Translations under genes and position numbers: made by a program
From: Zancudomyces culisetae HAW-14-8
Lineage: Eukaryota; Fungi; Kickxellomycota
Length of the DNA stretch: 64,000 nt
NCBI GenBank assembly: GCA_052426225.1
Contig: JBNJNM010000013.1
Coordinates: forward strand, 310,001-374,000
Direction: 5' to 3'
The notes under the pieces: generated by a model
Database searches by the model: none
The model's input: only the letters and a program-made list of their open reading frames with translations
What the model was told of the DNA's origin: nothing
Shown here: piece after piece, positions 4,899-32,426 of the stretch
Numbering within the stretch: the stretch's first letter is position 1
How the letters are laid out: the number at the start of each line of letters is the position of its first letter

Positions 4899-5121
4899 TG
4901 TTATATAGTGGAATTATATACCTGTATTTCCTTGTATTTTATTGGTTAATTTAAAAAGTATTATTTTATGTATTAAATAGTCTAGTTTTGAATTAATTAA
5001 TAAATTGTCTTTTTCTCCCACAATAATTATAGTACTAATATATAATAATAAAAGTCCCGTCCTGTATAATACTGGGTAATTATATTACTCAGTAGGACGT
5101 TAAACATGTAATTATACAACA
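4899..5121 (+). repeat. Solo LTR (223 bp), same family as the LTRs of the TRIM-like element at 30349-31357
   Basis: TGTTATATAGTGG..TATACAACA; near-identical to 31135-31357. Confidence 0.88.
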
Positions 5122-5711
5122 AAAAATTGTATGCAAAAGCATCAACTTAAATTTAATAGTACAAATCGATTTATTTTTTAGTCGAATCGATTTTATACTT
5201 TATTAGTGGATTTATTTTTAATCAATTTTATTAGTAAATTATTAGTATAAATTGAAAAAATTTGTAAATCCGACCAAAACCACACTAAAAGTAAAAATAA
5301 ACATATATAGAGAGGCGTAATACTATTTTTTTAGTGTAAGGAAAGGGCCATTTTGGCTATATTTTCCAGGTTTTGGGAGGAATTCTTTTAAATAAAATTA
5401 ATTTTACCAAAAATTGTGGAAATTGTCCAGTTGTGTTCTTTCCGAGGGGGTTTTATAGATAGTGGTTAACTGGCTAGAAATGGTAATCCTGTGTCAGTAT
5501 AAACCACCCTTCTAGGGAACCGTGATTGATATTAGTGGAAGTTTTTTGGGAAAATCCTATTGGGCTAGTACTAAAAAATGAAAACGAATTCAACAAATGG
5601 GGGCTCTGCCGGAAACGGTATGAGGAAAATTTGGGAGAAAAGTTAAATTTTTGGTCAGAAGATTTTCTTTCTAATAACCAAAAATTTGCCGTAAAAGCTT
5701 CGGCTATGTCG

Positions 5712-5904
5712 CCTAGAAGCCATTTATGAGACGAGTTGGACCTTACACCATCTGGGGCCAATGTGGGCTAGTAGGAGGTTTGTTCCTTTTAAATAGGGAA
5801 TAAATTCTCTGAACCACCGGACCAGGTAAGGTAACCACGAAAGCCCTTTTAGGGACTCGCGCTGGTAAATGCGAAACACTTTCAGTGGGGCTAGGAACAT
5901 TGGC
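5712..5904 (+). ncRNA. Structured, pseudoknotted RNA motif in the leader of element A (homologous fold to 14059-14222)
   Basis: Stems CCTAG/CTAGG, CATTTA/TAAATG, CGAG/CTCG, CCTTAC/GTAAGG, CTGG/CCAG, GTGG/CCAC; pseudoknot GCCAATGT(5757-5764)/ACATTGGC(5897-5904); AGUA/GAA loop-E-type internal loop. Confidence 0.7.
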
Positions 5905-8900
5905 TTTAAATACATTTTTCCCTTTAAGATTTTTCTCAATACTTTTTCGGGTTTCATTTACATTTTAGCCTAAATGTAATTGAATTTCCCACATTACCCG
6001 ACCTTTTCTTTTTAGGCTTTTGGGGAATTTAACAAATTGGGACTTGGGATATTAATTAAGTTTAATAGAACATTTCCAAACAGATAAATTCAACAAATGT
6101 CTTTGGGAACTTTTCCCAGTACAGCTTAAAATGCTGTGTTACCTGCGGGAGTTGAAGCAAAATGTGCGTTATGTCGCATACTTTTGGATACTTCCCAGGT
6201 GTTGGTGGTATGTTTATGGGTTTTTAGGCCGATAAGCATATTTTTGGTTGGAAGCGGAAACGAGACGGGTTCGTCTGGATTCCCCAAATATTGAAATCTC
6301 CTAGATACGGTGATAGCTAAAGAAAGTTAATTTTCGTTAATGCTAGCTGTACGGAGACCTTCCAATACTTGGGAGAAGAAAGATGGATACTGGGGGTTTA
6401 CTGCTGAAAAGTCAAATTATGTGTAAGTAACCTAAAAATACATGTACACAAGTCACCAAAGGTGGGCTCAAAACAGAAATGAGACGGACTTCTTTGAGAA
6501 GTACTGGGGATTTCTGCGGCGGGTTTTACACCATATCACCGGCGTCTAGGGACTAAATGCAATGCCATTTAGTCTTAGTGGAAGCCACTAGTAGTAATGA
6601 GGATAATAGGATGTAAAAATCCTAATTTTTTCTTACTACACCGAGTCTAGGAGCCCGACCATAGGTTACTAGACCGGCAACTTTGTAGCTAACTTTAAGA
6701 ATAACATCCTTAAAGTGGGGAAAAGCTACCAGTGACAGTGGGAAGGTAAGAGTTAACCAACCTACTAAAGTCACTTGGTAAGTTTATGCGAGCTATATGC
6801 AAGCTTATTCTAGGCCACAGTTTTGCTGGGAAACTACCTGGAGTTGAACTCCAGTAGTAAAAGTGTAAGAAGTTTAAAGGTAGAAATAAACTTCACACTT
6901 TAAATAGGGAGATCCCGTATCTATCTCCAGATACACTCATAAGTTTTGAGAAGTTGAAGTTAGTTATCCAAATCCTTTTTCAAGATTTAGGGAAACTGAA
7001 TCTGACTTCTCGGGTGGTTTTAAAGGAATAATTTTTTCTTTAATTGGTTTTAAGTAAGGAAATAACTGGGGAAATAATTTCTACCCTACCAGTTAACCCA
7101 GAAACTATAAGAGTAATAAAATACTCGATTCCAAAACCGAGTGAATGAAACAGGTGGAGGAATTTTGTGGTAAAGTTCCGTAAAATATGGAACTAAATTG
7201 GTATTAGGTTTGGTAGTAATATTTAAACAAGATCAGCCTAATATTATCGGGAAACTAAAAAGTTTACCCAGTAAGTCAGTAAATGGTAGTACCCAAAAAA
7301 GGGACACCTTGGGTTCGGTAGAACAAACGGAAGTATTCCAAACCCTCCAACCTACGTGGTAAGAGTACTTTCAGTTCTGGGGACCTTTCTACACCTTAAG
7401 TAGCTAATAAGGTGAGATAAATATTTACGAGGTGATAACCCTGCAGGAATCAACCTACGTCATTAATGGGACAGGAGCAGAACTGGTTTACTCTCTTTGT
7501 CCGGCCTAACCATTCTATCAAAATAAGGATAGATAAGTTAGATGGGGGTCTTAGTATAACCAATTACGGAGTAGCCAAAGCACTCCAAGAGTAAAGGATA
7601 CCATGGAGGTCAATTCCTAGGTATTCTACAGTCAATTGGGTCATGTAAGTTCAACATTCCCAAGGAGCTAGGGAGAGGTAGAATTTATTATTTATTTCAA
7701 CCAAACCCAATAGTGGTAACAAAGTAAGATGCACAATATTGTCGTCTTAGGAGTTCTGTTAGAGCGGCGCGTCTTCAGAACGGTAAATATCATTTAACTA
7801 GTTTCTACTTTCTAGTTAATGTTATTCGGAACCGAAACATACTGAAAAGATTATATTCAATAATCTTTTATTACACTAGATTAAATCCCTCCAACGTTCG
7901 AAAGATCTAGTGTGGAAATATGAAATGGGGGTAAAACAAATCCGATGTCCAATCTTTTGGGCGGGGAGGTCCTCCCTTCCAAACCGTTCGGGAGTTGGGT
8001 AAAACATCAAACCCAAACTGTTCATCTGTCACGATTGACACTAGGTACTATTGTTGCTTGAAAATATTTTATTTAGGATAAGATAATATTTTATCGCTAA
8101 GGATTTCATAGCGAAAAAATATTACTTTATATATTCAATAATATTACTAATAAAAGCATGTACTAATATTATAATTAACTATTGTAAGATTAATGTTATA
8201 ATTATAATTATGGTTTTGTGTTAGTATCATTACTTAAGTAAATAATTAAAACAACAAAATGTTTCAATTAAAATGAGTGTTTTGAATCAGTATTGTAACA
8301 ATACTAATTCAAAATCTTTTCATGTCATATTCATGACATCATCACTTCAAAACTGACTGAACTTTTGGTAACTTATATTGGGAATTAAATTTATAAATAC
8401 AAGTCAGAAAAACATAGCAGATAAAAAGCAGGGACACAGTCCAAATTAAAACAAAGTAAAACTAATCAAAACCAGCAAAGAAATTTAAAATTAAAATTTA
8501 TTGAGTCGAAATACTAAAAATCAAATCAGACTCCAAATCAAATAAAATCGAAATCAAATCCTATAAATCTAAAAGTTTATCCAACTTTCAACGGTTTAAC
8601 AAGCTTTCTAAACAATACTAAACTACAACAATATAAAATAAATTAAAAATTAAAAAAAATATTATATAATAAAAATATTATAATAAAATAATATATAATA
8701 AAAATATTGTTAAAAAATTAAACATAAAAATATAAAAAATATTTAAATTATAAAATTACAAAATAACAAAAAATTATCAATTATTTAAAGTTTAACAACA
8801 AAATCAAAATGTTTAGTAAAAGAGCAGAAAAGTTGAGAGAGGATACTACTGATGATGAATCAGAGGAGGTCGAAGTACAGGAGATGTCAGAATCGCATTA

Positions 8901-9025
8901 TTTACCCATAAGTTTTAATATTTATTTTTAATCATATTTAATTACCTTTGAATCCTAACTTGGGAACATTAAGTTTCCCAACTTAAATAAATTAGTTTCC
9001 TGACATTTTGGGAAACTTCTAATTA

Positions 9026-9994
9026 TTGGTTGAAGAGTTAATGATGGTCCACCAATTAGATGAGATCGCAAAATTAGCTATGCAACAAGCTTTGCAAGAA
9101 AGTCAAGCTCAAGCCCAGGCTCAAGCCCAGACACCCGCCCAAGTCCCCAGTCAGTTGCAGAATTTGCCTGCACCAAATCCGCAGCCAAGGATTGATGGTA
9201 TCAGAATACCAGAAATCCAGAAATACTCAGGAGAATCAGGAAGGTTCCGAGCCTTCACCGCCGAGATCAAGCGCCAGTTCTGGGCCAGACCAGACGTGTT
9301 CCAGAGTGACCATAACAAGATATGGTTCATCAGTTCTCACCTTGCCGGTCATGCTGCCCTGTGGTTCGATAACCTTATCGATACCCAATCACCGTTGCTC
9401 TCAGATTTCAAAGGGTTTGAGAATGAATTTCAAAAGAGATTCTCAGATCCTGGCCACCAAGCCCGAGCTATCACCCAGCTTCATAGTTGCCGCCAGTCCC
9501 AGCGTTCCGTTCTGGAATTTGCAACCGAGTTCAGAAACCTCGCCTCTCTCAGTGGATTCAACGAGCCAGCCAAAATCCACCTGTTTTACATCGGATTGGA
9601 TACTAGCCTTGTCCAGCGCCTTGCCACTGAACCGCTACCAAACACCTTGGACCAGCTCATTGATCAGGTGATTGAGCTTGAGAACAGAATCAATGCCCGC
9701 AGTGCCTACCTGCCCAAGAGAAGCGTCCCATTCCGCAACTGGAGTACTCCGGCTCCACCGGTCTTCCCCCGTCCAGCCATGCCTGTCCCAGATCACCAGA
9801 CTTCTGAGCCAATGGACGTTGATGCCGTCACCTCCCGTCCAAGAGCACCGCTAGATACAGCCGAACGCCAGAGAAGATTAGCCAATAATCTTTGTCTATA
9901 CTGTGGTCAGCCGAACCACATTCTCCGTAACTGTCCGCTCCGCAGGCCAAGACCCCCTATACCTGGGGTGCCAAAAGACAGTGCTCAGATGTAG
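9026..9994 (+). CDS. Gag of chromovirus B (true start probably an ATG at 9041/9044)
   Basis: Retrotransposon capsid-like region, PMDVD motif, CLYCGQPNHILRNC knuckle. Confidence 0.9.
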   Translation: MVEELMMVHQLDEIAKLAMQQALQESQAQAQAQAQTPAQVPSQLQNLPAPNPQPRIDGIRIPEIQKYSGESGRFRAFTAEIKRQFWARPDVFQSDHNKIWFISSHLAGHAALWFDNLIDTQSPLLSDFKGFENEFQKRFSDPGHQARAITQLHSCRQSQRSVLEFATEFRNLASLSGFNEPAKIHLFYIGLDTSLVQRLATEPLPNTLDQLIDQVIELENRINARSAYLPKRSVPFRNWSTPAPPVFPRPAMPVPDHQTSEPMDVDAVTSRPRAPLDTAERQRRLANNLCLYCGQPNHILRNCPLRRPRPPIPGVPKDSAQM

Positions 9995-12900
9995 TCCGGG
10001 AGTTACTCCTGAGCGTAGCAAATAATTCTAATATTTCTAGTAATAAATTTCATATTAAAGTTGTTTTAAATAATCTACACGAACTTGTTGCATTAGTGGA
10101 CTCCGGTGCTTCAGCCAACTTTATTCGTCAAGATTTATTAGAAAAACTAAACCTCCCAACCAAAGAAGCAGAAAAAACCATCGTCCTAGAAAGTGTTGAT
10201 GGTCACCAGATATACCCAGGGGGCATAAATGTCAAGGTTGATAATGCCCATATCAAGTCCGGTCCTAACCACTCTGAACACCTAGACCTTATCCCGATTC
10301 CAACCAATCACGCTGACATTATTTTTGGATTACCCTGGTTACGCAAACACAATCCTAGTATAACTTGGCCAGACCTCCAGATCCACTTCGACTCTGACTT
10401 TTGCAGTACAAATTGTGTTGATACCCACTCCATCCAGGCCGTGTTCAAGTCACCTGATGAACCAGATCCAGATCCAGTAGAACAAAATATTAGTCAGAAT
10501 ACGTCCACAAACCCAACTATCCTCCAAAGGGTGTTGAATAGATTATCAACTACCCTGCTTCCACACAGTGCCAAGTTGCTCGAATCGGTCAAGTTGGACG
10601 ATTCAAACACTGAAAATCAAAGATTTTCACCGCCTCCGTCTCCTGATCTCCCCAGCCCAGCTCCGTCAAATCCATACGCCAGAATTGAAGAGATTCTTCC
10701 TGTTCCTGTTCCTGCACCAGTCCAATCAGTCACTCCAGAACCTGAAACCCAAAGTTTGCCCAAACCCACCGCTATTGAGAATCGAGTAAATAACCATGTT
10801 AAGCAAATTCCTGAGCCCCGTCGTCCAGTAACCCCTGTTCCAAAAGTACCACTCAGACCTGAACTTCCCAAAGCAATCCTGAAGAAAATTGAGCCAAGAG
10901 AACCAGTCGTCAGATCCCGGCCATTTCATAAAAAAACCCCAGTCACCACCCCCGAGCCAGAATATTCCTTGGATCCAGATCCTGTAAATTTTGCCGTTTC
11001 TGAGTCCCCGCTAGAGTACTTGGAAGAATTCCCGCAACTTCCAGTAATATACTCTGAATTCAAGGAAGTGTTCAATCCCAAGTCTGCCGTCTCACTTCCT
11101 CCTCACCGCCGTTATGACTGTCCTGTCAACACCAAAGAGGGTTACACCCCATACTGGGGGCCAATATACCCGCTATCTGAAGTAGAGTTAGAGTCTCTAA
11201 GAGGTTACATCCGCGAAAACCTCACCAATGGCTTCATCAGACGCTCTGTCTCCCCTGCCGGTGCACCAATCATGTTTGTAAAGAAGAAGTCTGGAGACTT
11301 GCGCCTTTGTGTTGACTACCGCCGATTGAACGAAGCTACCATCAAGAATAGGTACCCATTACCTAGGATTGATGAGGCGTTCGATCGGCTGCGTACAGCC
11401 AAGGTCTTTACAAAATTGGATCTCAAAGGTGCCTACAACTTAGTGCGGATCAAGGAAGGTGACGAGTGGAAAACTGCATTTAGGTGCAGATATGGCCACT
11501 TTGAGTACCAGGTCATGCCATTTGGCTTGACAAATGCTCCCGCTACCTTTCAGCACTTTATCAATGATGTGTTACGAGATGTATTGGATCTCTATGCAAT
11601 TGCATACCTTGACGACATCTTTATATTTTCCAATGACACTGACACTCACATCAATCATGTGAAATCTGTTCTGAAAAAGCTGCTTGAAAATGGTCTGTAC
11701 TGTAACGCCGAAAAATGTCACTTCCATATCAGGGAAGTTGAATTTCTAGGCCATGTTGTGTCTTCAGATGGAATAGCCACCGATCCTGCTAAAGTCAAGT
11801 GTGTAAAGGAATGGCTACCACCCACCAATGTCAAGGAGGTCCAGAAGTTTCTCGGTTTTGCCAATTACTACCGAAAGTTTATCCCATACTTCTCACTGAA
11901 AGCCCTGCCAATCACAAGACTTCTGAAAAAGGATACACCGTTCGTTTGGAGTAAGGAGGCAGGTGAAGCCTTTAATACTCTTATCCAGGATCTCACCACT
12001 TCCCCCGTTCTCAGATACCCTGACCCAGGAAAACAGTTTATTCTGGAAACTGACGCCTCAGACTACGCCATTGGGGCTGCTCTGTCCCAAGAAGATGAAA
12101 ACGGTGATCTCCGTCCTTGTGCCTACTACTCTTACAAACTCAACACTGCCGAATCCAACTATAATATCTATGACAAGGAACTTTTGGCAATCATCAAGGC
12201 TCTCAAAGAATGGCGACATCATCTGGAAGGCTCCTCCATCCCGTTCAAGATTCTTACAGATCATAAGAATCTGGAGACCTTTAAAAATCTGAAGTCACTC
12301 AACAGAAGACACGCAAGGTGGTCTCTTGATCTCAGTAGATTCAGCTTCATCATAACCTACAGGCCTGGATCTCAAGGAGGCAAACCTGACGCTCTTTCTC
12401 GTTTGCCCAATCACACACCTGATAAGGTCGCCAACAACAACATCATAGGTGAAGACCACTTCATAGACACTATCAGCATAGTGGACAGTGATTTTGCTCA
12501 AGAAATCGCCAAATCCAGCAAAGCCCATCTAGAAGGATTATTGGATGCCGCAAGATACCAGAGCAGCCATAAGTCTAACGAGCCAGTAGAAGTTGAAGAT
12601 GGGATTGTAATGCTTGGAAACCGTGTTGTCGTCCCCGACAAAATGAAGCCGCAAGTTGTAAGTTCTAGACATGACAGTGGCCCAGCCGGCCATTTTGGTG
12701 CTAAGAAGACATTGGAGCTCGTGGAACGAGACTTTTGGTTTCCAGGAATGCGCAAATTTATTAAAGAGTTTGTTCAAACCTGTGATACATGCAATAGATC
12801 AAAGGACAGAAGACACAAAGTTTACGGTAAACTACTTCCGCTACCCGCTCCTTCAGGCCCATGGAAATATATTACCATGGATTTCATAACTGATCTTCCT

Positions 12901-13920
12901 CCATCCAACAAGCACACTACTATTATGGTAGTTGTAGACAGGTTCACTAAAATGAGCCATTTCATCCCGCTTAAGAAGCTGCCATCCTCAGAAGAAACTG
13001 CCTCCGCCTTCTTTACCCACGTATTCAAGCTTCATGGACTTCCAGACGTCATAATCTCAGACCGTGGAACCCAATTCTCGTCCAAATTTTGGAGTTCACT
13101 ATTCAAACTGCTCAAAGTTGATACTAGAATGTCTACAGCCTTCCATCCAGAGACAGACGGTCAAACGGAGCGGGTGAATCAAACATTGGAACAGTATCTA
13201 CGCTGTTTCATCAACTATCAGCAAGATAATTGGTTTGAACTGCTCCCAATTGCCGAATTTGCTTATAACAACACTCTCCACTCCAGCACTAATACTTCTC
13301 CTTTCTTTGCTCTATATGGTTACCATCCAAGATTTGATCCTCAAATCACTAAAAACGTTCACGTCCCCAGCGCTTCTGATAGGATAAAACAACTCAAAGA
13401 ACTTCAATCAGCCCTCACTTCCATACTTAACAAGAAATCTCAGGAATATAAAAAGTATGCTGATGTAAACCGATCTGAACATCCAAAGTATAAACTAGGT
13501 GACAAGGTTTGGCTATCCAGCCAAAATATCAAAACTCAAAGGCCTTCTAAAAAGTTTGGCCTTAGACTTCTAGGACCTTTCACCATCTCTAAAATTATCA
13601 ATCCTGTTTCTGTCCGTTTAGACCTCCCGCCATCAATGAAAATCCATAACACTTTTCATGTCTCGTTATTGGAACCGTATATCGAACCCAGCAGTAACCG
13701 CAGATTAATAAACAGTCTTCCTCCACCTCTAATTATAAATGGAAATAAAGAATATGAAGTTAAGGCTATTTTGGATTCTAAGCTTGTACGGGGTAAAAAA
13801 TATTACTTAGTTGATTGGAAAGGCTTTGACATAAGTGAAAGAAGCTGGGAGCCGATTGAAAACATAAACGCGCCTCAACTATTGAAAAAATACTATAAGA
13901 CATATCACAACAAACCATAA
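9970..13920 (+). CDS. Pol of chromovirus B (PR-RT-RH-IN-chromodomain), -1 frame relative to gag
   Basis: Frame open upstream of 10096 through the gag stop; LVDSGA, YLDD, ETDAS, integrase, and YEVKAIL..YLVDWKGF..SWEP chromodomain. Confidence 0.92.
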   Translation, partial: AKRQCSDVVRELLLSVANNSNISSNKFHIKVVLNNLHELVALVDSGASANFIRQDLLEKLNLPTKEAEKTIVLESVDGHQIYPGGINVKVDNAHIKSGPNHSEHLDLIPIPTNHADIIFGLPWLRKHNPSITWPDLQIHFDSDFCSTNCVDTHSIQAVFKSPDEPDPDPVEQNISQNTSTNPTILQRVLNRLSTTLLPHSAKLLESVKLDDSNTENQRFSPPPSPDLPSPAPSNPYARIEEILPVPVPAPVQSVTPEPETQSLPKPTAIENRVNNHVKQIPEPRRPVTPVPKVPLRPELPKAILKKIEPREPVVRSRPFHKKTPVTTPEPEYSLDPDPVNFAVSESPLEYLEEFPQLPVIYSEFKEVFNPKSAVSLPPHRRYDCPVNTKEGYTPYWGPIYPLSEVELESLRGYIRENLTNGFIRRSVSPAGAPIMFVKKKSGDLRLCVDYRRLNEATIKNRYPLPRIDEAFDRLRTAKVFTKLDLKGAYNLVRIKEGDEWKTAFRCRYGHFEYQVMPFGLTNAPATFQHFINDVLRDVLDLYAIAYLDDIFIFSNDTDTHINHVKSVLKKLLENGLYCNAEKCHFHIREVEFLGHVVSSDGIATDPAKVKCVKEWLPPTNVKEVQKFLGFANYYRKFIPYFSLKALPITRLLKKDTPFVWSKEAGEAFNTLIQDLTTSPVLRYPDPGKQFILETDASDYAIGAALSQEDENGDLRPCAYYSYKLNTAESNYNIYDKELLAIIKALKEWRHHLEGSSIPFKILTDHKNLETFKNLKSLNRRHARWSLDLSRFSFIITYRPGSQGGKPDALSRLPNHTPDKVANNNIIGEDHFIDTISIVDSDFAQEIAKSSKAHLEGLLDAARYQSSHKSNEPVEVEDGIVMLGNRVVVPDKMKPQVVSSRHDSGPAGHFGAKKTLELVERDFWFPGMRKFIKEFVQTCDTCNRSKDRRHKVYGKLLPLPAPSGPWKYITMDFITDLPPSNKHTTIMVVVDRFTKMSHFIPLKKLPSSEETASAFFTHVFKLHGLPDVIISDRGTQFSSKFWSSLFKLLKVDTRMSTAFHPETDGQTERVNQTLEQYLRCFINYQQDNWFELLPIAEFAYNNTLHSSTNTSPFFALYGYHPRFDPQITKNVHVPSASDRIKQLKELQSALTSILNKKSQEYKKYADVNRSEHPKYKLGDKVWLSSQNIKTQRPSKKFGLRLLGPFTISKIINPVSVRLDLPPSMKIHNTFHVSLLEPYIEPSSNRRLINSLPPPLIINGNKEYEVKAILDSKLVRGKKYYLVDWKGFDISERSWEPIENINAPQLLKKYYKTYHNKP

Positions 13921-14043
13921 GAGCAACATTATATTTTATTATTTAACCAATATTATACCTAAATACTTATCAAAACAACTATAAAAACAACCTAAAAACA
14001 ACTAAAAAGCATAAAAAATTATAAAAGAAAAAATAAAAAAAAA

Positions 14044-14301
14044 TGAACTTAGGAGGGCGCTAACGTCTTGGGCCACACAATCACGTGATTCGAATTAACT
14101 GCTCGAGATCCCGAAGGAGTTATCGGAGAGGTGAAACGGTCCGGTACTAGTCCCGAAGGACGTTATCGCGCACATTGGCCCCGTGAAACATCACATCCAC
14201 TCTACAGCTAATTACTTCCCAATTACGGTCTTACAGCGAAGGATCGAACCAGGGTCCTGCAGAATACAAGTTCGACGCCTTAGCCACTCGACTATAAGCT
14301 C
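14044..14301 (-). ncRNA. Putative RNA polymerase III ncRNA (~258 nt) with tRNA-like head, carried antisense by element B
   Basis: A box TAGTCGAGTGG at +8, B box GGTTCGATCC, 5' GAGCUUA pairing with 3' UAAGUUC-A, T9 terminator (A-run 14035-14043), two cUUCGg hairpins, TATATAAAA at about -31 to -23 once element C is removed (25191-25199). Confidence 0.75.
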
Positions 14302-16597
14302 ACATTTTTGTTATAGAATTTCACAATTCTATGATTATTTAATATTCTTATTGTATTATATGTTTATTACTAAGTATATTATTTTTGTATTATTGTTCTT
14401 TTTAATACTATATATGTTTAACTTAATATTTTGTTAAGATGTGTTTTTATTTAATTCAAAGTGGGCGGTTGCTTTAACCCCCAGATAATAATATAATTAA
14501 TGAGGAAATATAATGTAAATAACTAACTAAACTATTGGACAAAAACCACAGGGGGAAAAAAGGTCCAATCTCAAAACTATTAACTAAAAACCTAATGAAT
14601 AAATAAAGCTAATTATATAAAATCGTATCTTCATACGACAGAACCCCGGTCCCAGATTGGGCCTACCGGTCTAGGTGTACGGAAGCGTACCAACTTGGTT
14701 CTTAATGGTGTACTAATCTCTGGTATCATGTATCTACTTTGATGATAATGCTTTAGCATATCACCGTTTACTAGATCGCGGTTCCCTTCACTATCTGATA
14801 TGACGTAAGTTCCTTTGTTCAACCTTCGGTCTACCTTGTATGGTCCTTCCCATACTTGTTCTAGCTTTGGCATGGGTTGTTCGGTCAGTTTAAGTACTAT
14901 ATCACCCTCCTTAAATGCTGAGGGTCTCACTCTGCTGTCGTATCTGATTTTTTCTTTTTCTTTTTCAGCGATACTGTTACTTAGTCCTACATTTCTAAGT
15001 TCAGGTATATCGGTTTTTATTGCATCAATCCTTTCTTGTATAGCTATATCGAGATCGCTAATTTCGGGTGGTGGTGCCCATAGGGCTGGCGTTGTTAATT
15101 TTACGCCGTATAATAATTCCGCAGGACTATATTTCGTAGCTCGGTTTCGCATCGTTCGAATGGCAAGCAGAGTTTTCCAAAGGTACTTGTCCCAATTACC
15201 TTTGTTCTTATGACACTGCTTCACTAACGTATTCTTCAGAGTCTGATTAAGCCGTTCCACCTGCCCATTACTCTGGGGCCTATAGGAAGTGGTGGGTGTG
15301 TGCTTAATCTGGAGGAAGTCGTAAACCTTGGCTGCTTGTTCACTGATGAAACCTGATCCTCTGTCCGTTATTATTTGATCCGGTACGCCATAGTGTTGCA
15401 CTATTTGTGTAATAATAAAATTTACTATTGTTTCAGTCTTTATGCTTTCAACAGCCTCAGCCACGGGCCACTTTGTAAAATAATCGATTCCAGTGAGTAT
15501 AAAGCGATTTCCTGTTGACGATATTGGGTTTATTGGCCCCACTGCGTCTAATCCAAATATACTAAATGGCTTATATGAATATATAGGATGAAGTCTGTTT
15601 CTTTTTATACGTCCTCCTTTAAATAGCTGACAATCATGGCATTGCTCTACAACTTTTCTTACTGTTTCGAAAAGCCCTTCGCCTGTATAAGTGTCTTTCA
15701 TTCGTTCCCATGTATTCTCTACCCCATTATGATTTTCGTTATGTATTCGCTCTACTGTGTCGCGCATGTGCCTTCGTGAAGTACTTCTTTAATATTTCCT
15801 TTTATATATCGAACTAGTTTATCGTCTCTAACCCTGTATTTTGTTGCCCTGTTTCTTATTTTTAACTGTTGGCTTTCGCTACTATTTTCTGGATACCTAG
15901 AGTTAGTGATATAGTTTTTTATAGCATTATATTCAATAGATGATAGTGTAAAAATTTGAATCTCATTAGGTGATTCTTCAGCGTCCTTTGATACCAAACG
16001 TGAAAGCGCGTCGGCAGGATTCGTTTTTCCTGGACAATGTTCAATAGTGTAGTCGTAGTTTCTCAGCATCATAGCCCATCGGGCTACTCTGCCTGTAATC
16101 TCTTTGGAATTGAATAACTGCAATAACGACTTATGGTCAGTGTGTCATGAACTGATTCTAGAATGTTCGAAAACGTTCTAGAATCATCTGATTTTACACC
16201 GCAGTAATGTTTAGAATGTTCCCCAACATTCTAGAACATTACCGAAAATTCACATTATTTCTTAATTTTTATTACGTAATAATTTTCACATGTTTAATTT
16301 TAATAGCATTCGAGTTTGATTTTTGTTTGATTAATAATCAAACACGTTTTTCTTTACATTTCATTTTTAGCTATTCCGCAGTTTTCATAGTGATTTTGTT
16401 CAAAAACCAAGGCTGGAAAAAAGTATAAAAAGGGTACAATTTTCCTGTCTTGGATTCAGTATCTAGTATCTTGTATACATTCATACAATAAACTTTAATA
16501 ATAATAAATATAACTCTCCTGACTCCAGATCTTGACACTATACTAGATCAAAATATTATATTTATTATTTTCTGACACCAGCCTAAGTATTTTAACC

Positions 16598-17818
16598 ATG
16601 GAACCGTTTAGCCCAGAACAAGTTGAATTCCTCAACAAAGCCGCCGTGACCCTGCCAACAGTTGAAGAAGCCCTCCAGCAACTACTAATAAGAGTAGAAA
16701 AAGCCGAGTCTGCCATCAAGGAACACCCTGCCACGGTATCCAAGAAAATTTATGACAAGGTCAAAGCAGACACTACCAAGTCCATCCAGACCATTCTTGA
16801 CTCCATGAACAACCTCCAGTCCGATATCCAGAATTCAGACCAGCTAACCCAAAGCGCCATACAGGCCAACCAGTTGGAAATCCAATCCCTTCAGGACCAG
16901 CTCAGTACCCTCAGGAACGAAGTCATACTTTATATAACTGAAAACCGTGCCACCAAAGTTGCTAGTACTTCTGAACCTAGTATCAAAGTAAGACACCCAG
17001 ACACATTTTCAAGAAAACCCTCCGCCTGTTCCAACTTCTTTTCACAGCTTGCTCTCGTCTTTGCCGCTTCACCCGATAAATTCAACACAGACTCAAGTAA
17101 AGTCTTGTATGCCATCTCCTACCTCTCAGGCACACCATTCAGTTACATGGAACCTTACCTCATGAAAGCAAACCTTCCACAGTCTGATCGTCCTGCCATC
17201 CTCTCCAACTACAATCTGTTTAAAGAAACTATCACTCGTGCCTTTGGTGATCCCAACCATATTGAGAATGCTGATAGGGCAATCCGCCAACTCCGCCAAA
17301 CCACTTCCGTTGCCGCATATGCCACCGAGTTTAGACGCCTACAGATGTTAATTGACTGGAACCAACCACCTTTGATCTCACAGTTTCTATCCGGTCTCAA
17401 GTACAACGTATCCCAAGAACTCAACCGTAGAGAACCAATAGAAGACATCGATACCCTGATCTCTACAGCCATCCAGATCGACAACCGCCTTTTCAGCCAT
17501 CCACAACGTCGTCAACCTCCAGTTAACCCCACTGCAACTATGCCACCCAAACCCACTGCTTACAACCCGTTTGCTTCACCTGTTTCTGCACCATCTACCA
17601 CTCCACCAGCTAATAGTGATGGACCGCAACCAATGGATCTCAGTACCGCTTCATCGACTAGAAGACCACCACTTACTCCTGCTCAAAGAGCATACCGTAT
17701 CGAAAACAACCTCTGTCTCTATTGTGGCGGTAATGACCATTTCAACATCAACTGTCCAAAGAAACGCCACAACATGTCCAGCATTACACCAACACAGGAA
17801 AACGACACCGCCCAGTAG
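16598..17818 (+). CDS. Gag of chromovirus D
   Basis: Coiled-coil N-terminus, capsid-like region, PMDL motif, CLYCGGNDHFNINC knuckle. Confidence 0.92.
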   Translation: MEPFSPEQVEFLNKAAVTLPTVEEALQQLLIRVEKAESAIKEHPATVSKKIYDKVKADTTKSIQTILDSMNNLQSDIQNSDQLTQSAIQANQLEIQSLQDQLSTLRNEVILYITENRATKVASTSEPSIKVRHPDTFSRKPSACSNFFSQLALVFAASPDKFNTDSSKVLYAISYLSGTPFSYMEPYLMKANLPQSDRPAILSNYNLFKETITRAFGDPNHIENADRAIRQLRQTTSVAAYATEFRRLQMLIDWNQPPLISQFLSGLKYNVSQELNRREPIEDIDTLISTAIQIDNRLFSHPQRRQPPVNPTATMPPKPTAYNPFASPVSAPSTTPPANSDGPQPMDLSTASSTRRPPLTPAQRAYRIENNLCLYCGGNDHFNINCPKKRHNMSSITPTQENDTAQ

Positions 17819-17840
17819 ACAGTAAGGGACACCTATTGGG
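17797..17840 (+). promoter_or_regulatory. Putative -1 programmed ribosomal frameshift signal
   Basis: G GAA AAC heptamer in the gag frame, 6-nt spacer, stem GCCCAGTAG/CTATTGGGC. Confidence 0.75.
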
Positions 17841-20800
17841 CAACTTAGCCAGTCCCCACGCCACTGTAACCACTCCTGTTTCTGACACCCAATCTCCTGA
17901 TAAACCAAACACCTTGACCATTCCTGTAACCATCTTGTCCAAGCACCACCACATCAAAACCTACGCTATGGTTGATTCTGGTGCTTCGTCCTCGTTCATT
18001 GACGCCACCTTTGCTCTAAAAAACAATCTACCATCTATATCTAGAAAAATGACAATCACGCTCGCTGACGGATCAAAGCTTAGATCCAACTCTGCCTCCC
18101 AAGTAACACTAAAAATCAACGATAACCATCTCGAAAGTATCTATCTGCAACAAATAGACCTTGGATCTTCACCAATCATCCTTGGTCTTTCCTGGCTTCA
18201 ACAACACAATCCTGACATCAACTGGACTGAGAACATAGTCCATCTGCCTTGTACCTTGACTTCTTGTGGGCCCAACCATGTCAACCTAGACATATCTCTT
18301 GTGGGCTCAAACCAGTTTAAAGAACATCTGAAGGCACCAGACACTGTCTATGCTGGTGCAATTACCGTGAACAATCTTGAATCCCTTGTAGCTCCTGAAT
18401 CTTGTGAAAATCTTTGTCTTGTCTCTGAATCTAATCCTGAAACCCCTGTTACTCCTGTAATCCCTGAAAAGTATAAAATGTTTGAATCTGTCTTCTCTGA
18501 ATCCCAATCTGCCAAACTGCCTGAACATCGTCCATATGATCATACCATTCCTTTGCTTCCTGACTCAAAGATACCATATGGCCCATTGTACAACCTCTCC
18601 CAATTGGAACTAAAGACCCTGTACGACTACATTCAGGAAAACCTAGCCAATGGTTTTATCCAACGCTCTGAATCCCCGGCTGGGGCTCCCGTCCTATTTG
18701 TAAAAAAGAAAGATGGTAGTCTCCGGTTGTGCGTCGACTATAGAGCCCTGAATAAGGTCACTGTCCCCAACCGTGCAGCCTTGCCACTCATCTCTGAAAC
18801 CTTGGATCGGCTTGGCAAAGCCAAGATATTCACCAAGCTGGATATGAAATCCGCATACCACATGATCAGGATCTCGCCTGGTGAAGAATGGAAGACCGCG
18901 TTTCGTACACGCTACGGCCACTTCGAGTATAAGGTCATGCCGTTTGGCCTTATGAATGCTCCAGCCACGTTCCAGTCCTTTGTTAACGATCTCTTCCGTG
19001 AATACATTGATCAATTCCTTGTTGTGTACATCGATGATCTGTTAATCTACTCAGATGATATCGATAAGCACTATGACCACGTCTGCCTTGTCTTGAAGAA
19101 GCTTCAGGAACACAATCTCACCCTCAAGCTAGAGAAATGTGAGTTTGATGTACAATCAGTACAGTTCCTCGGTTTTGTAATTGGCCCCAACGGAATCTCT
19201 ATGGATCCATCTAAAGTATCCAGCGTTACCGAATGAAAGACACCAACTTGTGTCCGTGACGTTCAGGTATTCCTTGGCCTTACAAACTTCTACCGCCGTT
19301 TTATTTTGAACTACTCCAAGATATCTCTGCCGCTCACCGCCTTGTTGAAAAAAGGTGACCAATTCCAGTGGACACCCAAAGCTGAAGAAGCTTTCGCCTT
19401 GCTAAAAGAAACCATGATCAGTAACCCAGTCTTAGCTCACTACAATCCTGACCAGCCTTGTATCATCGAAACCGATGCATCAGATTTTGCATTAGGTGCC
19501 ATTTGCAGCCAGTATGACAACGAGGGACAACTCCACCCTGTTGCATACTACTCCCGGAAACTCCTGCCTGCTGAAGTGAATTATCAAATCTATGATAAGG
19601 AACTGTTAGCAATTATCGACGCTTTTGCTCACTGGCGTCACTACCTTGAATTTTCTGTACACCCAACCGTTGTTATGACCGACCATAAAAACTTGGAATA
19701 CTTCTCCACTACCAGAAATCTTAGTCGCCGCCAAGTCAGATGGTCAGAATACCTCAGTAACTTCAACTTTGTCATCAAGTACCGCCCTGGAAAACAGAAC
19801 ACTGCCGCCGATGCTCTTTCTCGGAAAGACCAACCTTGGAAGGGGGGTGACTCCCGTACTGACCAAAACAAAATAACTTTGCTGCCTCCTGATATATTCT
19901 TGAAGTCCATGACTAGTACACCTGTTGAACCTTTGTCATCCACGCTCATGAACAACATCAAGTCACTACAACCCAAAGACACGTACTTTGGACCCATTTA
20001 CACTGACTTATCCAAGAAACCTGATTTCCATGAAAAGTTCGCTCTTGTTGACAATCTTCTGCACTATGATGGACTAATCTGTATCCCCTCAGACGACAAC
20101 ATCAAAAGAACAATTCTGATTGAATGCCATGATTCCCCTGCTGCCGGCCACTTTGGAAATGCAAAGACGTACGAACTTGTATCTCGCAACTTTTACTGGC
20201 CAACCATGAGAAAATATATCAAAGACTACATCTCTGGTTGCGATACCTGTCAACGCAACAAATCCTCTCGCCATAAACCATATGGCTACCTCGCTCCACT
20301 TCCCGTTCCTGATTCACCTTGGTCATCTGTTTCTGTCGACTTCATCACTCAGCTACCTCCATCCAATAACTTTACTGCAATCTGTGTATTTGTGGATCGC
20401 CTTACCAAGATGGCGCATTTTGCTCCCACAACCAATGAAATTGATGCTGAAGGTACTGCAGATCTATTTATCCAACATGTCTTCTGCAAACATGGGCTCC
20501 CTAAAGACATCGTATCTGATAGAGGTGTGACCTTCAATTCATCATTCATGCGTACTCTAATGAAATCACTGAATATTGAACAGAAAATGTCCACCGCATT
20601 CCATCCTCAGACAGATGGACAAACTGAACGCGTAAACTCAGTATTGGAACAGTATCTCAGGTGCTACATTGATTACCAACAAACTGATTGGTCAAAGTGG
20701 TTACCAATTGCTGAATTCGCCTACAACAACACATCTCATGCTTCTACTAAAACCACACCTTTCTACGCCAACTATGGCTTCCATCCACGCTTCTCAGTCA

Positions 20801-21414
20801 TAATCCCTCGTACTCAAGTTTTAAATCCTGCCTCCTCTGATAGATCCAAACGACTATCTGATATCCACCAAGAACTGAAGTTTAACATCTCCCTTGCCCT
20901 TGAAGACCATGAGAAATACTACAACCGAAAAGTATCATCACAACCTGACTTCAACATTGGTGATCTTGTCTATCTATCAACTAAAAACATCAGGACTCAA
21001 AGACCAAGCAAGAAGCTTGACTATCGGAAACTTGGTCCATTCAAAGTATTGGAAAAGATTGGACAAAGATCATACAAACTTCAGCTACCACACACAATGA
21101 AGATTCACCCAGTATTCCACGTCAATCTCCTTGAACCTTGTAAACCAGATCTGATCCCAGACAGACTATCAAAACCGCTTCCACCTGTGATCATTGACGG
21201 TCAAGAAGAATATGAAGTTGAGAAAATCCTAGATAGTAAAATATTTGGTAGAACTGTCAAATACCTGGTACACTGGAAAGGATACCCAGACACTGAACGT
21301 ACCTGGCAAACATATTCTGACTTAGCAAATGCAAAATATCTTGTCACTGAATTCCATCGTCACCATCCTGAAAAACCAAAGCCACCACAAATGCTTCACG
21401 GAGCTCAGCCTTAA
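17797..21414 (+). pseudogene. Pol of chromovirus D (PR-RT-RH-IN-chromodomain) with in-frame TGA at 19234-19236
   Basis: MVDSGA, YIDD, ETDAS, chromodomain YEVEKIL..YLVHWKGY; TGA replaces the Trp seen in EWLPP of element B; -1 frame relative to gag. Confidence 0.9.
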
Positions 21415-24400
21415 GAGGGGAGGTCGTGTCATGAACTGATTCTAGAATGTTCGAAAACGTTCTAGAATCATCTGATTTTACACCGCAGTAATGTTTAGAA
21501 TGTTCCCCAACATTCTAGAACATTACCGAAAATTCACATTATTTCTTAATTTTTATTACGTAATAATTTTCACATGTTTAATTTTAATAGCATTCGAGTT
21601 TGATTTTTGTTTGATTAATAATCAAACACGTTTTTCTTTACATTTCATTTTTAGCTATTCCGCAGTTTTCATAGTGATTTTGTTCAAAAACCAAGGCTGG
21701 AAAAAAGTATAAAAAGGGTACAATTTTCCTGTCTTGGATTCAGTATCTAGTATCTTGTATACATTCATACAATAAACTTTAATAATAATAAATATAACTC
21801 TCCTGACTCCAGATCTTGACACAGTGCGTATCGTGAAGTGTTTTCCCCAGAGATAATACTTTAGCTTTTGGATAGACCAGATTACCGCTAGACCCTCCAG
21901 ATGTGAAATTGAGTAATTACGTTCGTGCTTATTAGTGATTCTACTTATAAAACATACCGGTCTCTCTCCATCATCAAATTTTTGCGAAAGTATACCCCCG
22001 ATTCCAATCACGGAAGCGTCAGTTGTTACAATGAACTCACGCTCCCAATCTGGATGAGCTAACGTTGGTGCTTTTGACATCTTTTCTTTTATTGCTTCCA
22101 TTGCCTGCTCACATGTTTTATCCCAATTCCACGGCTGTCCTTTTTTCAGTAGCTTTAACAGCGGTGCGATAGTCGTAGCATAATTTTCCACGTATTTCCT
22201 ATAAAAGCCTATCAAACCTAAAAATGATTGAAGCTCTTTAACTGATGTAGGTGCTCTTGCTTTCTTAATGGATTCAACTTTTTTCATGCTTGTTCTCACG
22301 CCGTTCGTAGTTATCACATGGCCGAGGTATTCCAATTCTTTCATTCCTAAGAAACATTTTGCTTCATGCAACTGTACCTTTCCTCCTCGTAGTAAATTAA
22401 ATACCTCCTTTAGATGCACTAAATGCTCCTCTACCGTTTTCGAGTAAACAATTATGTCATCGACAAATACTATCGCTGTCTTCCACAGAACAGGTGCAAG
22501 AATCTTCTCCATTAGCCGCTGAAAAGAGGCAGGACTGTTCGTTAAGCCGAACGGCATAACATTGTAACAAAAACTGCCAGTACCGGGTATAGAAAATGCT
22601 GTTTTATCTCGATCCTCTTTGGCCATACGGATTTGCCAAAATCCGCTTAAGGCATCAAGAGATGAGTATATCTTTGCTCCCGCGACAGCCATAAAAATAT
22701 CCTCAATAGTTGGCAGTGGGTAGGTGTCTTTCTTAGTCTGTTCGTTAAGTTTTCTGTAGTCCGTACATATCCTAAGTTTACCATTCTTTTTCCAAACGGT
22801 GACCACTGGGGAACACCATTCGGACATGCACTTGGATATTACACCGTTATTCTCCATTATCTGTAATTCGTCTCTTACTTTTGTGTATAGGTGATGCGGG
22901 ATCCTATAGGGTTTTAACTTTATAGGGGTATCGTCTTTTAGTATTATTCTGTGTTCCGCTTGATCTGTCTGTGTTAGCTGTTCCAAATCAGATGCGAAGA
23001 TATCCCTATTATCTGCCTTCATAGCTTCGATTCGTGGGTCACTATACTTTAAGCTATCATCAACAGGTGATTGGTTTTCTTTAAGCATTAAAAACAATTC
23101 ACTTTCCTCACATTCCTCGTAGCCTGGCACATCCTGTGTGTGCAGTGGTACTATAAGCATTATCCGTTCCAGCGGTAGTCTAAGCTCTGAATCTTTAATA
23201 TTCAGTTGTGCCTGGTGCCTCATAAGCCAATCCATCCCTAAAATTAGGCTATCATCTTTACGTTGCATTATAGTTAAATTTGTTGTAAACCTATTGTTTC
23301 CTATTCTTAGCGGAATATCCCTCACAGTGCCTAATGAATGATGCCTCATTCCGTCTGCAGTTATGATTACCTGGTCGTTTTCCTCATCCATGATTAGTCC
23401 CCATCCTTCTACCATTCTTGGTGTAGCAACGGAGCACGCAGCTCCTGTATCAACAACTGCCCATATTTCCTTGTTGTAAACTGTCACAATTATTCTGCAG
23501 TTGGTAGTGCGCGGTCTGGCAAACTTCAGCTCGTTGATTTCCTGCTTTTTTGTCTTCTTGCATAAACTTATCATTTCGCTGTTCAACGATGGTGCAACAC
23601 TCATAAGTTGCGGGAAGGATATTGTTGGATTCCATTTAGCAAGTTGATCCACTAATGAGAATGGTTCTATCCCTTCTGCCATTTTTATCTCGGTTTTTAC
23701 TTTAGTTTTTGAAGCTTGCGCTACATTATCCTGTTCTATCTCCTGCTTAAGCTTTTCTTGTTTTAAGTTGTTTTTTGATCTATAACTAACCTTGTTTCTA
23801 GCTGGGTCTGGATCTTCTACTTGCATTGACAGTTCTGCATTTGGTACATACTTGTTGTTAACAACTGTATCTGCACTATCCTGAATTTTCACTGCCTCTT
23901 TTCTTGTGTATGGCGTACTCTGTTTGTTCCCTGGTGCCCTTCGTTGTACAGCTAAGATTTCCATTGGTGAAATATCCTCATGAGCTAGTTCTAAAAAATT
24001 AACATTCTTAGTGTACTTTGACTCTGATTTATTCTCAGCTTCTTTCAGCTTGGGGCATTCGTACTTTTTATGTCCCTCCTTGCGACAGTGAAAGCATGTA
24101 ACAACCCTAGGGTATGTACGTTGGTACCTATTTCTTCTAGATTCAAAAAACTTCTTCTCAACCGCCTCGTCTACTTTGCTTAGTAAATTTAAACTCAACT
24201 GTTCCATTCTTTCTAGTATCTCCTTATATTCTCCTGAACCACTGTTTACTTTTTTACTCGGACTAGCTTGTTTCCCTTCTTTTTCTACATCCTTTTCCCT
24301 GTCTGCTATCCATTTAACAACTGCATCCCATGTTTGTAAATTATTATCCCTAACTTTGATCTTGATATCACTGCTCAATGAACTCACGAGCCAGTTATAT

Positions 24401-27400
24401 TTTGCATTAGTATCCTCAATCCCGGCCTTGCTTAAAGCACTCTCCAAAGCAAATTCTAGTTCTTCTATAGACTCATAGTTTTCTTGTTTAATTTCCTTGA
24501 GTTTGTCGTAACTTACATAGCCTTGCTCTGCAGATGCAAATTTAGATTTAAATTCCACTGTGAAAGTAACCCAGTCACTAAACGTTGCGACATTCTTTTT
24601 ATACCAAACTAGTTCACGCTTGCCTAACTTTAACTGCGCTAAATCAACCCAATCTGCTGCGTCCCACTTATTCAACTTGGCAATCAATCTAAACTGCTTT
24701 AACCACTCTTCTGGGTCAGTGCCCATGGATGATTCAAAACGAGGGATACTTTCCATTTTAGCTGTAAGTCCTTAACCTATCTTGAAAATGTTACTTTTAT
24801 TACCATAGGCATATGTTCTGGCCTAGCTGGGAGCGCCACTGTTATAGAATTTCACAATTCTATGATTATTTAATATTCTTATTGTATTATATGTTTATTA
24901 CTAAGTATATTATTTTTGTATTATTGTTCTTTTTAATACTATATATGTTTAACTTAATATTTTGTTAAGATGTGTTTTTATTTAATTCAAAGTGGGCGGT
25001 TGCTTTAACCCCCAGATAATAATATAATTAATGAGGAAATATAATGTAAATAACTAACTAAACTATTGGACAAAAACCACAGGGGGAAAAAAGGTCCAAT
25101 CTCAAAACTATTAACTAAAAACCTAATGAATAAATAAAGCTAATTATATAAAATCGTATCTTCATACGACATTTTTGTCCAAGATATTATTTTTATATAT
25201 TTAAAATATTCTTTGAAGGGGGGATAATGTCAGAATCGCATTATTTACCCATAAGTTTTAATATTTATTATTAATCATATTTAATTACCTTTGAATCCTA
25301 ACTTGGGAACATTAAGTTTCCCAACTTAAATAAATTAGTTTCCTGACAGGAGACGAGCGTTCCTGAACCAACAACTGACCGAATACCTCTAAATATGAAC
25401 TTTACGTTCAACAGAGGAATTCCAGATGTAGCAATGTTCGATAGCAACACTACTACAAACGTGGAAGAATGGCTCGATAGGTATGAGCTAATGGCTAGGA
25501 TCAACAGCTGGATGGAAAAAGACAAGATTGATTTCTTAGAATTGTTTTTAACGGGGAAAGACCTTCGATGGTACAAGATCAATAAGTCTAAACTAGAAAA
25601 ATGGAAAAAGGTTCGTGAGGAATTCCTGGAAAAGTTTGAAGGTAAAGACAGAGAGGCACGAGCGTGGAATCAACTGCAAAGCCTTAAACAAAGTGACTAC
25701 CTCGACTTTGAAGATTTTGAGACGGAGTTCAGCAAACTGGTCTCAACAGTCGATATTAAAGACGAACGGATCAGACTTAAGTTTTTTGTAGACGCTCTTA
25801 ACCCCAAGTATCAAAGGCAAATTTTAAAAGCCAAAGTTAAGGATGTCAAATCTGCCATAGCAATAATCCAGGCAGAAGAGGATGTCGAGAAAATATTACC
25901 TACTGTCAGGGAAACATCAGAAAAACCAAAAAGCACTAGTAGGAAGGTGATGAAGGTACATAAATCTAATGAGGGACCAGATATGTACGAGGCGTTGATT
26001 AAAAAGTTTGACGAGCTTTCACTTAATCTCCTAGCTAGATTAGAAAAGAGACCAAATTACTCTGAAAAGTCTGCTCCACAATCAAGAAGACCGTTCAAGA
26101 AAGTGGAATGTACATACTGCAAAAGGCCAGGGCATGAGGCCGCAGCGTGCTACAAGAGGCAGAAGGACCAAAAACAAGAAATTAACTGCATAGAGATAGA
26201 AAGAAAAACAGATAGAAACAAAGATACGGAACTCTATGCGGTGGACAAACGGAAGAGAGACGAAAACAATGGCATGGATTTTCAGCCAGCTCATGCAAAA
26301 ATCCGTGTGGCACAAAAAGAACCTAACAAAACGGGGCCAGTAATCAAACCAGCTACCCTAAGAGTTAGGAAGAAAATGGATATTAGACTATCGGAGAACA
26401 TTCAAAAGTTTTCGATAGGTTCAGAGTTGGATAAATTAAAACCAGATATTTCACTTGGTCAACTGTTACAGTCTTCACCCGAAATCAGGAAAGAGTTGGT
26501 CGATCTCTTTAAGAAGATAGAAGCCAAGGAGCTGAACACCATTGTAGAAGATAGGACAACCACCACAAACTGCAAAGCTTACATTGAAGTATTTGGAAAG
26601 CACCAGCTCACAGTTATTGATACAGGTGCAGCATGTTCAGTAATCTCAGAGCAATTTATGGACATGTTAGGTTTAAAAATTGAGCAAAAAGATCACTCAA
26701 TGCTCATAACCGCTGATGGCACCAAGCATGAGACACTGGGAATAATCAGAGATGTTCCATTTGTTATAGCAGGGTTCATCTTCCCAGGAGATTTAGTAGT
26801 TATGGAAGGAGGATTAAACAGGATGGTGTTGGGAGCAGATTGGTTACTGAAACACCAGGCCAACATCGATTTGAGCAACATGGAGCTGCTCTTACCAACG
26901 GTAGAAGGGGACGTTGTAGTTTCACTGATGATAACTGAAACAGATGGTCCAAAACAGACAAACGAGTATGAATACTACTCGATGATCAAGGAAGTCGATA
27001 ACCGCGAACAGAAAGAAAAAGTACCAGAAAATATTGCAGAAGTGCTCAAAGAGTATGCAGAGATATTCGTGGATGACTTGCTAGAACTCCAGCAAACAAA
27101 TGTGTTGGAACACAGTATTGATACTGGAGATTCAAACCCAGTAAGAGTGCGACCATACAGAATAGCTCACCACCTAAGGGAACAGGTGAGGGAAGAACTA
27201 AAAATTATGGAACAAAGAGGGATCATAGAGCCATGTCAATCAGACTGGTGTGCACCGGTAGTTGAAGTCAAAAAAAAAAACGGAAAACTTCGGATCTGTT
27301 CTGACTACCGCAAACTCAACATGATTACCAGAAAAGATCTTTATCCTCTACCCATAATTGACGACATACTGGCAGCATTCGGAGAAGCAGGAGTATTCAG

Positions 27401-31357: not shown

Positions 31358-31360
31358 ACA

Positions 31361-32048
31361 TGTTGTATGCTTAGTTCTACCCAAGCTAAACTATTGGATG
31401 AACAGCATACAGCTTCTCAAACACCGAATAACCACCGTTATCTCGAGTGTTCGAGCAAGAAATCTGGGATTTCTTGGGTAATAAATTACCCAAATGTTGG
31501 AGAAATATTCAGTTTTAATTGTTTTATTTTAAGTTTCTATTATATAAAGTTCTAATAAAATAGCTAGTCAGGTACTAGTATATTACTAGTAACCTCACCA
31601 CAAGTTTGGTGGTTTTATCTTTTTATTTTTAAAAGTTATTCATTAAATAAAATACAAATTAGCTCTAAAATACTTGATTTTACTCTATAAAATTGAAATT
31701 TGTGATTTGAGCAAAAACCTACCTAAAACCAAAAAAAAACATAGGTAGTGAAGCGTAACACAATTTTCAAAGGGTATCAGAAAGGTATCAGAGTCTAATT
31801 TTTGGACCAAAATTAATCGTTTTGCACACCAAATTTTAGTAGTTGGGCGTAATTTTACCCAGTTTTATCGCATTTATTGAAGTAATAAATACATAAAACT
31901 AAATTAAATATAAGCTAAAAAGGTAGGGTTGACTGGTTAAATAAAGTAAAACTTATTCCAGTAACAATCCCCCTCTATTAGCAAAACTTTTTGTAGGTTT
32001 AGTTTCGGAAATTTCCAAAGAAATTAATTGCAAACTAAAATTACAACA
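31361..32048 (+). repeat. Solo LTR of the element E family
   Basis: 688 bp, collinear with 32821-33509 with scattered differences. Confidence 0.92.
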
Positions 32049-32051
32049 AAC

Positions 32052-32422: not shown

Positions 32423-32426
32423 AAAC

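Follow-up and report, generated by a model that had tools for sequence, protein, structure and literature searches.

Does an LTR retrotransposon of a Harpellales fungus carry, antisense behind its pol gene, a Pol III unit of its own, and what would such a unit do to its carrier? The question is posed by a window of 64,000 nucleotides of Zancudomyces culisetae HAW-14-8 (contig JBNJNM010000013.1, positions 310,001 to 374,000), in which a nest of LTR elements spans approximately 4.4-39.2 kb. The HMG-CoA synthase encoded at 61821-63020 shows 100% identity to a protein recorded under the name Zancudomyces culisetae, in keeping with a Harpellales host. The carrier, element B, has the following parts.

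8885..9005, plus strand: 5' LTR of B (TG...CA)
9006..9018, plus strand: primer site of B
9023..13920, plus strand: gag (9023-9994) and pol (9931-13920) of B
25215..25348, plus strand: polypurine tract (25215-25223) and 3' LTR (25228-25348) of B

Judged by its sequence, B is a Ty3/gypsy retrotransposon with a chromodomain. Its pol encodes protease, RT, RNase H, integrase, SH3 and chromodomain, and this Ty3/gypsy domain order with a C-terminal chromodomain is that of a chromovirus. The element is 5.6 kb long with gag and pol open, its 121-bp LTRs are identical at 119 of the 120 compared bases, and its 5-bp target duplication GGAGA (8880-8884 and 25349-25353) lies within gag of another element, A. 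Positions 9008-9018 are complementary to B's own LTR at 8971-8981 (an 11-nt match), from which we infer a self-priming type that does not need a tRNA primer; a primer complementary to the own LTR has been described for Tj1 (PMC4600332). With the inserted element C removed, the 3' UTR consists of the pol stop at 13920, 123 nt that are T-rich on the minus strand, a 258-nt island, about 46 nt of AT-rich sequence and the polypurine tract. Close relatives of B were not found, the best among the matches listed showing 56% identity near full length and 58% over a partial length; they were also absent from viral contigs with the single protein.

The 258-nt island (14044-14301) is the candidate unit, lying antisense in the 3' UTR of B. 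The unit and its surroundings are composed as follows.

13921..14043, minus strand: U9 terminator (14035-14043) and T-rich stretch
14045..14067, minus strand: 3' arm of the predicted terminal helix, pairing with RNA positions 1-28
14109..14137, minus strand: twin module, second copy
14150..14189, minus strand: twin module, first copy
14229..14301, minus strand: tRNA-shaped head, 73 nt
14241..14250, minus strand: B box
14284..14294, minus strand: A box at +8
25176..25214, minus strand: former upstream flank of the unit, now split off by C

The island has a GC content of 51%, against 18-23% in its flanks, a richness that only 1.5% of 258-nt windows match, and its CpG observed/expected ratio is 1.21 versus 0.58-0.72 in nine coding regions. 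As in a type 2 Pol III unit, A and B boxes stand at tRNA spacing and an oligo-T terminator follows, with none earlier. Scanning the window for the A/B pattern returned two sites, the unit and a tRNA-His gene, where 0.175 are expected per shuffled window. At its end the unit has one A and then U9, beyond which seven more runs of 4-6 T follow on the RNA strand. In being T-rich downstream and A-rich upstream, the flanks resemble what surrounds a Pol III gene; the AT skew downstream of the unit is -0.42 (RNA strand) versus -0.39 behind tRNA-His. It should be added that an internal T4 is absent from the unit, but only at chance level (P 0.33).

Within the 73-nt head, all 20 tRNA positions that were checked, on a list of our own choice which we take to be conserved, were in register without a gap, and five of them (26, 32, 33, 37 and 48) fall outside the promoter boxes. 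The stems pair in one of seven positions (acceptor), three of three (D), three of five (anticodon) and three of five (T). Because the 20 positions are in register and yet the stems are broken, the head reads as the descendant of a tRNA which kept the promoter and lost the tRNA fold. The original prediction had described a GC-rich island between the pol stop and the polypurine tract, with a minus-strand A box at +8 and a B box at tRNA spacing, with broken anticodon and T stems and with U9 behind an end stem. All of these features were found again, the boxes starting at 14294 and 14250 and the U9 being set off from the stem by the single A.

Other identities for the island were tried and rejected. 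ARAGORN makes no tRNA call at the unit (in its relaxed mode it gives noise, with 177 calls in the window), and Rfam covariance models, among them SRP, RNase P/MRP, U6, Y and vault RNAs, matched nothing in 13900-14450 at E values of up to 10; with the cloverleaf stems broken, a functional tRNA gene was discarded. The sole frame of 100 codons, 14135-14437, crosses the junction with C, which speaks against a protein-coding gene. A MITE was dismissed since the end repeat is interrupted, no target duplication is present, and the ends pair better as RNA on one strand. By eye, neither CUGANGA, the core consensus of a hammerhead, nor the D box of a box C/D snoRNA was seen. Furthermore, the top BLAST score of the unit against the rest of the window was equalled by 76 of 100 shuffles. 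Taken by its sequence features, the unit resembles a type 2 Pol III unit and not a tRNA gene.

Evidence of another kind on whether the promoter is live comes from the elements that surround it.

14305..14308, strand not applicable: 4-bp target duplication of C, second copy at 25172-25175
14309..25171, minus strand: element C, Ty3/gypsy, oriented like the unit
16143-21821: chromovirus D, interrupting C
4899..39205, plus strand: LTR train (G solo, A, G, F-like solo, H, I, F)
39213..39283, plus strand: tRNA-His(GTG)

The train has an eighth member, J, which ends at 4894, and together with J and tRNA-His the array occupies 4433-39283. Its order is J, G solo LTR, A, G, F-like solo LTR, H, I and F, arranged head-to-tail; for H and I this orientation was assumed, for the rest it came from genes, from primer sites or from identity to LTRs of established orientation. 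The elements belong to several families, have 4-bp duplications and are separated by A/C spacers of 3-5 nt. The train ends 7 nt before tRNA-His, and the 4-bp target duplication of F (39206-39209) occupies -4 to -7 of this gene, with F oriented like the gene. Only a few bases separate F and its train from the Pol III gene downstream of them, in the manner of Pol III-targeting Ty3/gypsy elements. In our reading, the train arose as element after element inserted at the start of a single tRNA gene, an arrangement that shows apparent Pol III targeting in a Harpellales fungus. Chromoviruses B and D differ from the train in being inserted within other elements and in having 5-bp duplications. At 1835-1883, an LTR end of the kind found in the train stands without a neighbouring tRNA gene, which counts against the argument from Pol III targeting.

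Several further features of the nest and its left border may be recorded here. Element G (30349-31357) is a non-coding, TRIM-like LTR element of about 1 kb with primer site and polypurine tract, and its solo LTR lies at 4899-5121. Element A has an unusually long non-coding leader of about 3.2 kb between primer site and gag (5597-8808), and the solo LTR of I (32427-32815) holds, by eye, nested inverted repeats. Chromovirus D has an in-frame stop (19234-19236) between RT and RNase H, its LTRs being identical at 397 of 397 positions. The LTR end at 1835-1883 is a 49-bp perfect inverted copy of the end of J's LTR (4846-4894), and it adjoins an element (1882-3453) that has long inverted repeats at its termini and an interrupted transposase-like frame, by eye Tc1/mariner-like. 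Positions 1-1551 hold the zinc-finger end of one frame, poly(A) and a zinc-knuckle frame; on the zinc-finger motifs these are apparent tandem LINE fragments. A lone B box lies on the minus strand of this region at 1461.

Element C groups with A and F: RT identity is 59-61% to these versus 36-41% to B and D, the grouping has a support of 100/100 in a five-row tree, and integrase identity with A and F is 49-50%. No chromodomain was matched in C, and its LTRs (14309-14640 and 24840-25171) are identical over 332 of 332 positions. Its target duplication covers -4 to -7 of the unit, equal to that of F at tRNA-His. A random insertion within B would produce this offset and direction with a probability of about 5e-4. 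Since C's offset and direction at the unit are those of F at tRNA-His, the site was probably bound by a Pol III initiation complex. Insertion of yeast Ty3 requires intact A and B boxes and TFIIIB, and sites with TFIIIC only are not targeted (PMC5911963); the insertion orientation of Tj1 is fixed (PMC4600332). By analogy, it is very likely that TFIIIB was present at the unit when C inserted, and in the recent past a Pol III initiation complex probably occupied the unit, in the midst of the repeat nest. The Pol III targeting of C itself is inferred from its relatives, the single C insertion being the one at the unit. C's insertion does not prove that RNA is made, because loading of TFIIIB suffices for Ty3 and full transcription is unnecessary (PMC5911963). 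It would represent a natural footprint of a Pol III complex within a repeat nest. The proposal of a Pol III unit within the 3' UTR of B is in this way supported, and strengthened by the common geometry of the C and F insertions; the feature is real, and its promoter is probably live.

Boxes that arose by chance where GC is high, with C inserted next to them accidentally, would agree with the lack of Rfam and ARAGORN calls and with a TATA element, a fold energy and a T4 absence that are all at chance level. We consider this highly improbable: by chance, a UTR as long as this one should hold about 0.001 A/B pairs, tRNA positions beyond the boxes are kept as well, and the placing of C would have to be accidental too. 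Another possibility raised by the nest is a portable chromatin barrier, where the Pol III complex would hold part of the element open within silent repeats. B has a chromodomain and sits within another element, C's insertion implies access within a 35-kb repeat nest, and tRNA genes of S. pombe are barriers in either orientation, with TFIIIC and Pol III needed (PMC2040200). The TFIIIC barrier of the original prediction is nevertheless a poor fit and, in our estimate, quite unlikely: a distance of about 5 kb separates the unit from the 5' LTR promoter, the unit stands on a single side, and, being outside the LTR, it is not copied to the 5' end.

Whether the unit belongs to B as a family or to this one copy was approached through public sequencing runs and distant relatives. 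Three of the five listed runs, from three studies, contain part of the stretch, none of them being listed as RNA; four runs were first compared with it (X1-X4), then X1, X2, X3 and X5. X1 contigs cover pol (7 differences in 432 nt), the pol end with the UTR, and the island (1 difference in 175 nt). A 216-nt contig of X2 holds the final 28 nt of pol, crosses the UTR and reaches the island, with two differences, both in the UTR, so that a contig of another study joins the UTR of B to the unit (13893-14108); X2 also has the LTR of B joined to the primer site. X3, probably DNA, yielded a 177-nt island contig with about five differences, some of which may be errors at a depth of 4.9; it covers only 14071-14248, within the predicted RNA, leaving pol and LTR uncovered, and uncovered parts prove nothing. 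X4 gave low-complexity matches only. No new B flank or C-free junction was seen in the contigs of the compared runs, and the X1-X3 contigs may represent alleles of this one B insertion.

For the wider comparison, 100 distant Ty3/gypsy loci (31-52% integrase identity) were used, 85 of which have at least 250 nt behind pol. None of the 85 has an antisense A/B pair behind pol, and on any strand one does (L097, sense strand). This locus, which looks like a plant element, has two sense tRNA-like A/B-box units behind the polypurine tract (L097:4834-4892 and 5002-5058), probably inside the LTR and the sole such matches in 669 kb of loci. Scans for motifs of the unit gave no match in viral contigs, prokaryote genomes and the 100 loci. 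Taken together, the unit does not appear to be a general chromovirus feature; that it is a regular part of the B family seems somewhat more likely than not.

The same data bear on the idea of a passenger of no use to B, either a SINE of tRNA origin or a host gene for a Pol III RNA, caught in one B lineage with its promoter live. A tRNA head, an unrelated 185-nt body and a T-rich end make up the layout of fungal SINEs, for which calling used 140-493 bp and oligo-T (PMC5063351). The absence of an antisense unit from the 85 relatives, the ordinary short UTR that B would still have without the unit, and the LINE fragments of the window point in the same direction. On the other side, the unit has no poly(A) tail, and no shared word abuts both its ends as a target duplication would (an old one could have decayed). 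No second copy was found in the window or in the 100 loci, and no Rfam family matched at E up to 10. None of the loose ends listed joins the unit to a foreign flank, a comparison of low power with contigs of 175-216 nt. A passenger is possible, if doubtful.

If the unit is transcribed, its structure may indicate what the RNA is for. The pairing of the first and last seven nucleotides that had been pointed out holds (P 0.013), and it extends into an interrupted helix of 19 bp between positions 1-28, which include the A box, and 235-257. For this helix P was 0.012-0.027 with ends of 28-30 nt and 0.05-0.06 with ends of 35 nt, and five of 300 shuffles equalled it. The end duplex has -20.5 kcal/mol on the RNA strand versus -15.2 on the other. 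The ends of the unit thus look modestly shaped at the RNA level. The 'structured body' of the original prediction found no such support: the whole-RNA fold is no stabler than shuffles (z 0.22), and five sub-regions on either strand showed no unusual folding (z -0.9 to +1.5, whole or parts). Two of the X3 differences alter both partners of one predicted pair into a mismatch and one breaks another pair, the remaining ones being unpaired in the minimum-energy fold, so that two pairs are broken and none is restored. The module said to occur twice is indeed a collinear duplication (P 0.002), but folding does not favour the UUCG hairpins in it, which have pair probabilities of 0.04 and 0.01-0.02, the second having only 3 bp. 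The claimed TATA near -30 is likewise present at -31/-29 in the former upstream flank (TATATA at 25194-25199, that is -31 to -26), but such a placing arises in 10% of shuffles (P 0.10). The unit body also contains a perfect 12-bp palindrome with a CACGTG core (14079-14090), both ends of which are altered in the X3 contig.

A trans-acting accessory RNA, either an end-paired Pol III decoy similar to VA RNA or a source of small RNAs similar to TMERs, would fit a terminal helix of 19 bp in which the A box takes part and which stops a single base short of U9, a duplex stronger on the RNA strand, a high CpG ratio and a twin module with cUUCGg loops. In VA RNA, box A is likewise part of the terminal stem, which Dicer cuts (PMC7589676). 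The folding that equals shuffles, the unfavoured UUCG hairpins, the X3 variant (one contig) with its broken pairs and the missing GGGU-ACCC pair all speak against such an RNA, and we regard it as improbable.

Our preferred, tentative reading is that the antisense tRNA-derived unit of B, likely bound by Pol III and predicted to give an end-paired RNA of about 260 nt, would act as a brake on B. It is favoured because it follows from layout alone. The sequence itself shows the boxes, the terminator, the complementary ends and the placing of C. A Pol III complex would stand just before the polypurine tract, head-on to Pol II, and the RNA of the unit would be fully complementary to the genomic RNA of B; both effects would leave less full-length, reverse-transcribable B RNA. 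Maf1 represses Pol III under stress, and the brake would lift when stress does so. The lowering of full-length B RNA is the weakest step of this chain. An antisense MIR occupied by Pol III lowers the expression of Polr3e by transcriptional interference (PMC5358760). Against the brake, the end helix and the twin module are not needed and are left unexplained; the unit attracted C, which cost this B copy its integrity; and no independent B insertion was seen among the contigs compared, nor an antisense pair in any of the 85 relatives. A passenger ranks nearly as likely as the brake. The fuller claim, an accessory Pol III gene owned by the chromovirus as its equivalent of VA RNA or the TMERs, fixed in the family, controlling the element or its silencing and serving as landing pad for tRNA-seeking elements, is doubtful. 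If true, one element family would trap another, every B copy attracting tRNA-seeking retrotransposons; if fixed and functional, the unit would be a non-coding accessory gene and a testable case of retrotransposon self-control.

For fungi, no report was found of an autonomous LTR retrotransposon with a Pol III unit lying antisense inside it, in a coverage made up largely of journals other than subscription ones, and the publications listed on Zancudomyces and retrotransposons hold passing mentions. Pol III promoters have been described in viruses and in the LTRs of elements that are short and non-autonomous. Helenus, Ajax and Cassandra (TRIMp3) are LTR retroelements with a Pol III promoter derived from a small RNA, as B has; in Helenus, from fungi, the A and B boxes lie in mostly non-functional tRNA-like sequence (PMC10886601). 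TRIMp3 elements are non-autonomous, under about 1.3 kb, carry this sequence in their LTRs and are thought to make template RNA from it (PMC10886601). B, in contrast, has full gag-pol, and its unit is internal, single and antisense and cannot make a template. Membership in TRIMp3 was rejected, the unit being placed between pol and the polypurine tract of an autonomous 5.6-kb element whose LTRs have no A/B pair.

The unit shares with tRNA-derived SINEs such as AfuSINE2 of Aspergillus fumigatus a tRNA head with boxes, an unrelated body, a similar length and a T-rich end (PMC5063351). It differs from them in having neither target duplication nor dispersed copy (window and 100 loci) and in its mutually paired ends. 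With adenovirus VA RNA it has in common the internal A/B promoter, a (here predicted) terminal stem with box A, an oligo-U end and a selfish carrier (PMC7589676), whereas it lacks the GGGU-ACCC pair and an exceptionally stable stem, is antisense to its carrier and has a fungal host. The TMERs of gammaherpesvirus 68, about 200 nt long, also combine a tRNA-like 5' part with a downstream body under Pol III (PMC4337559). The unit, unlike TMERs, has no stable downstream hairpins, and processing of the tRNA type is unlikely because the cloverleaf cannot form (acceptor 1/7). BLV and foamy virus have Pol III miRNA cassettes with short miRNA hairpins within the LTR-bounded genome; no miRNA-like short hairpin is predicted in the unit.

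Like Ty3, Tj1 and TRE5-A, elements C, F and those of the train have their insertion sites upstream of a Pol III unit and within a few bases of it (PMC5911963, PMC6673722, PMC4600332, PMC5391098), and in a single orientation, as Tj1 does (PMC4600332). They differ by 4-bp instead of 5-bp duplications, and the target of C is inside another retrotransposon. The use made of C here also has a precedent in this literature, insertions of TRE5-A having served to deduce the presence of Pol III complexes at A/B boxes that belong to no tRNA gene. Finally, the antisense MIR in Polr3e is, like the unit of B, a Pol III unit lying antisense within a Pol II transcription unit (PMC5358760); it sits in an intron of a mammalian host gene and its repression was shown experimentally (PMC5358760), whereas for the unit of B a brake is predicted.
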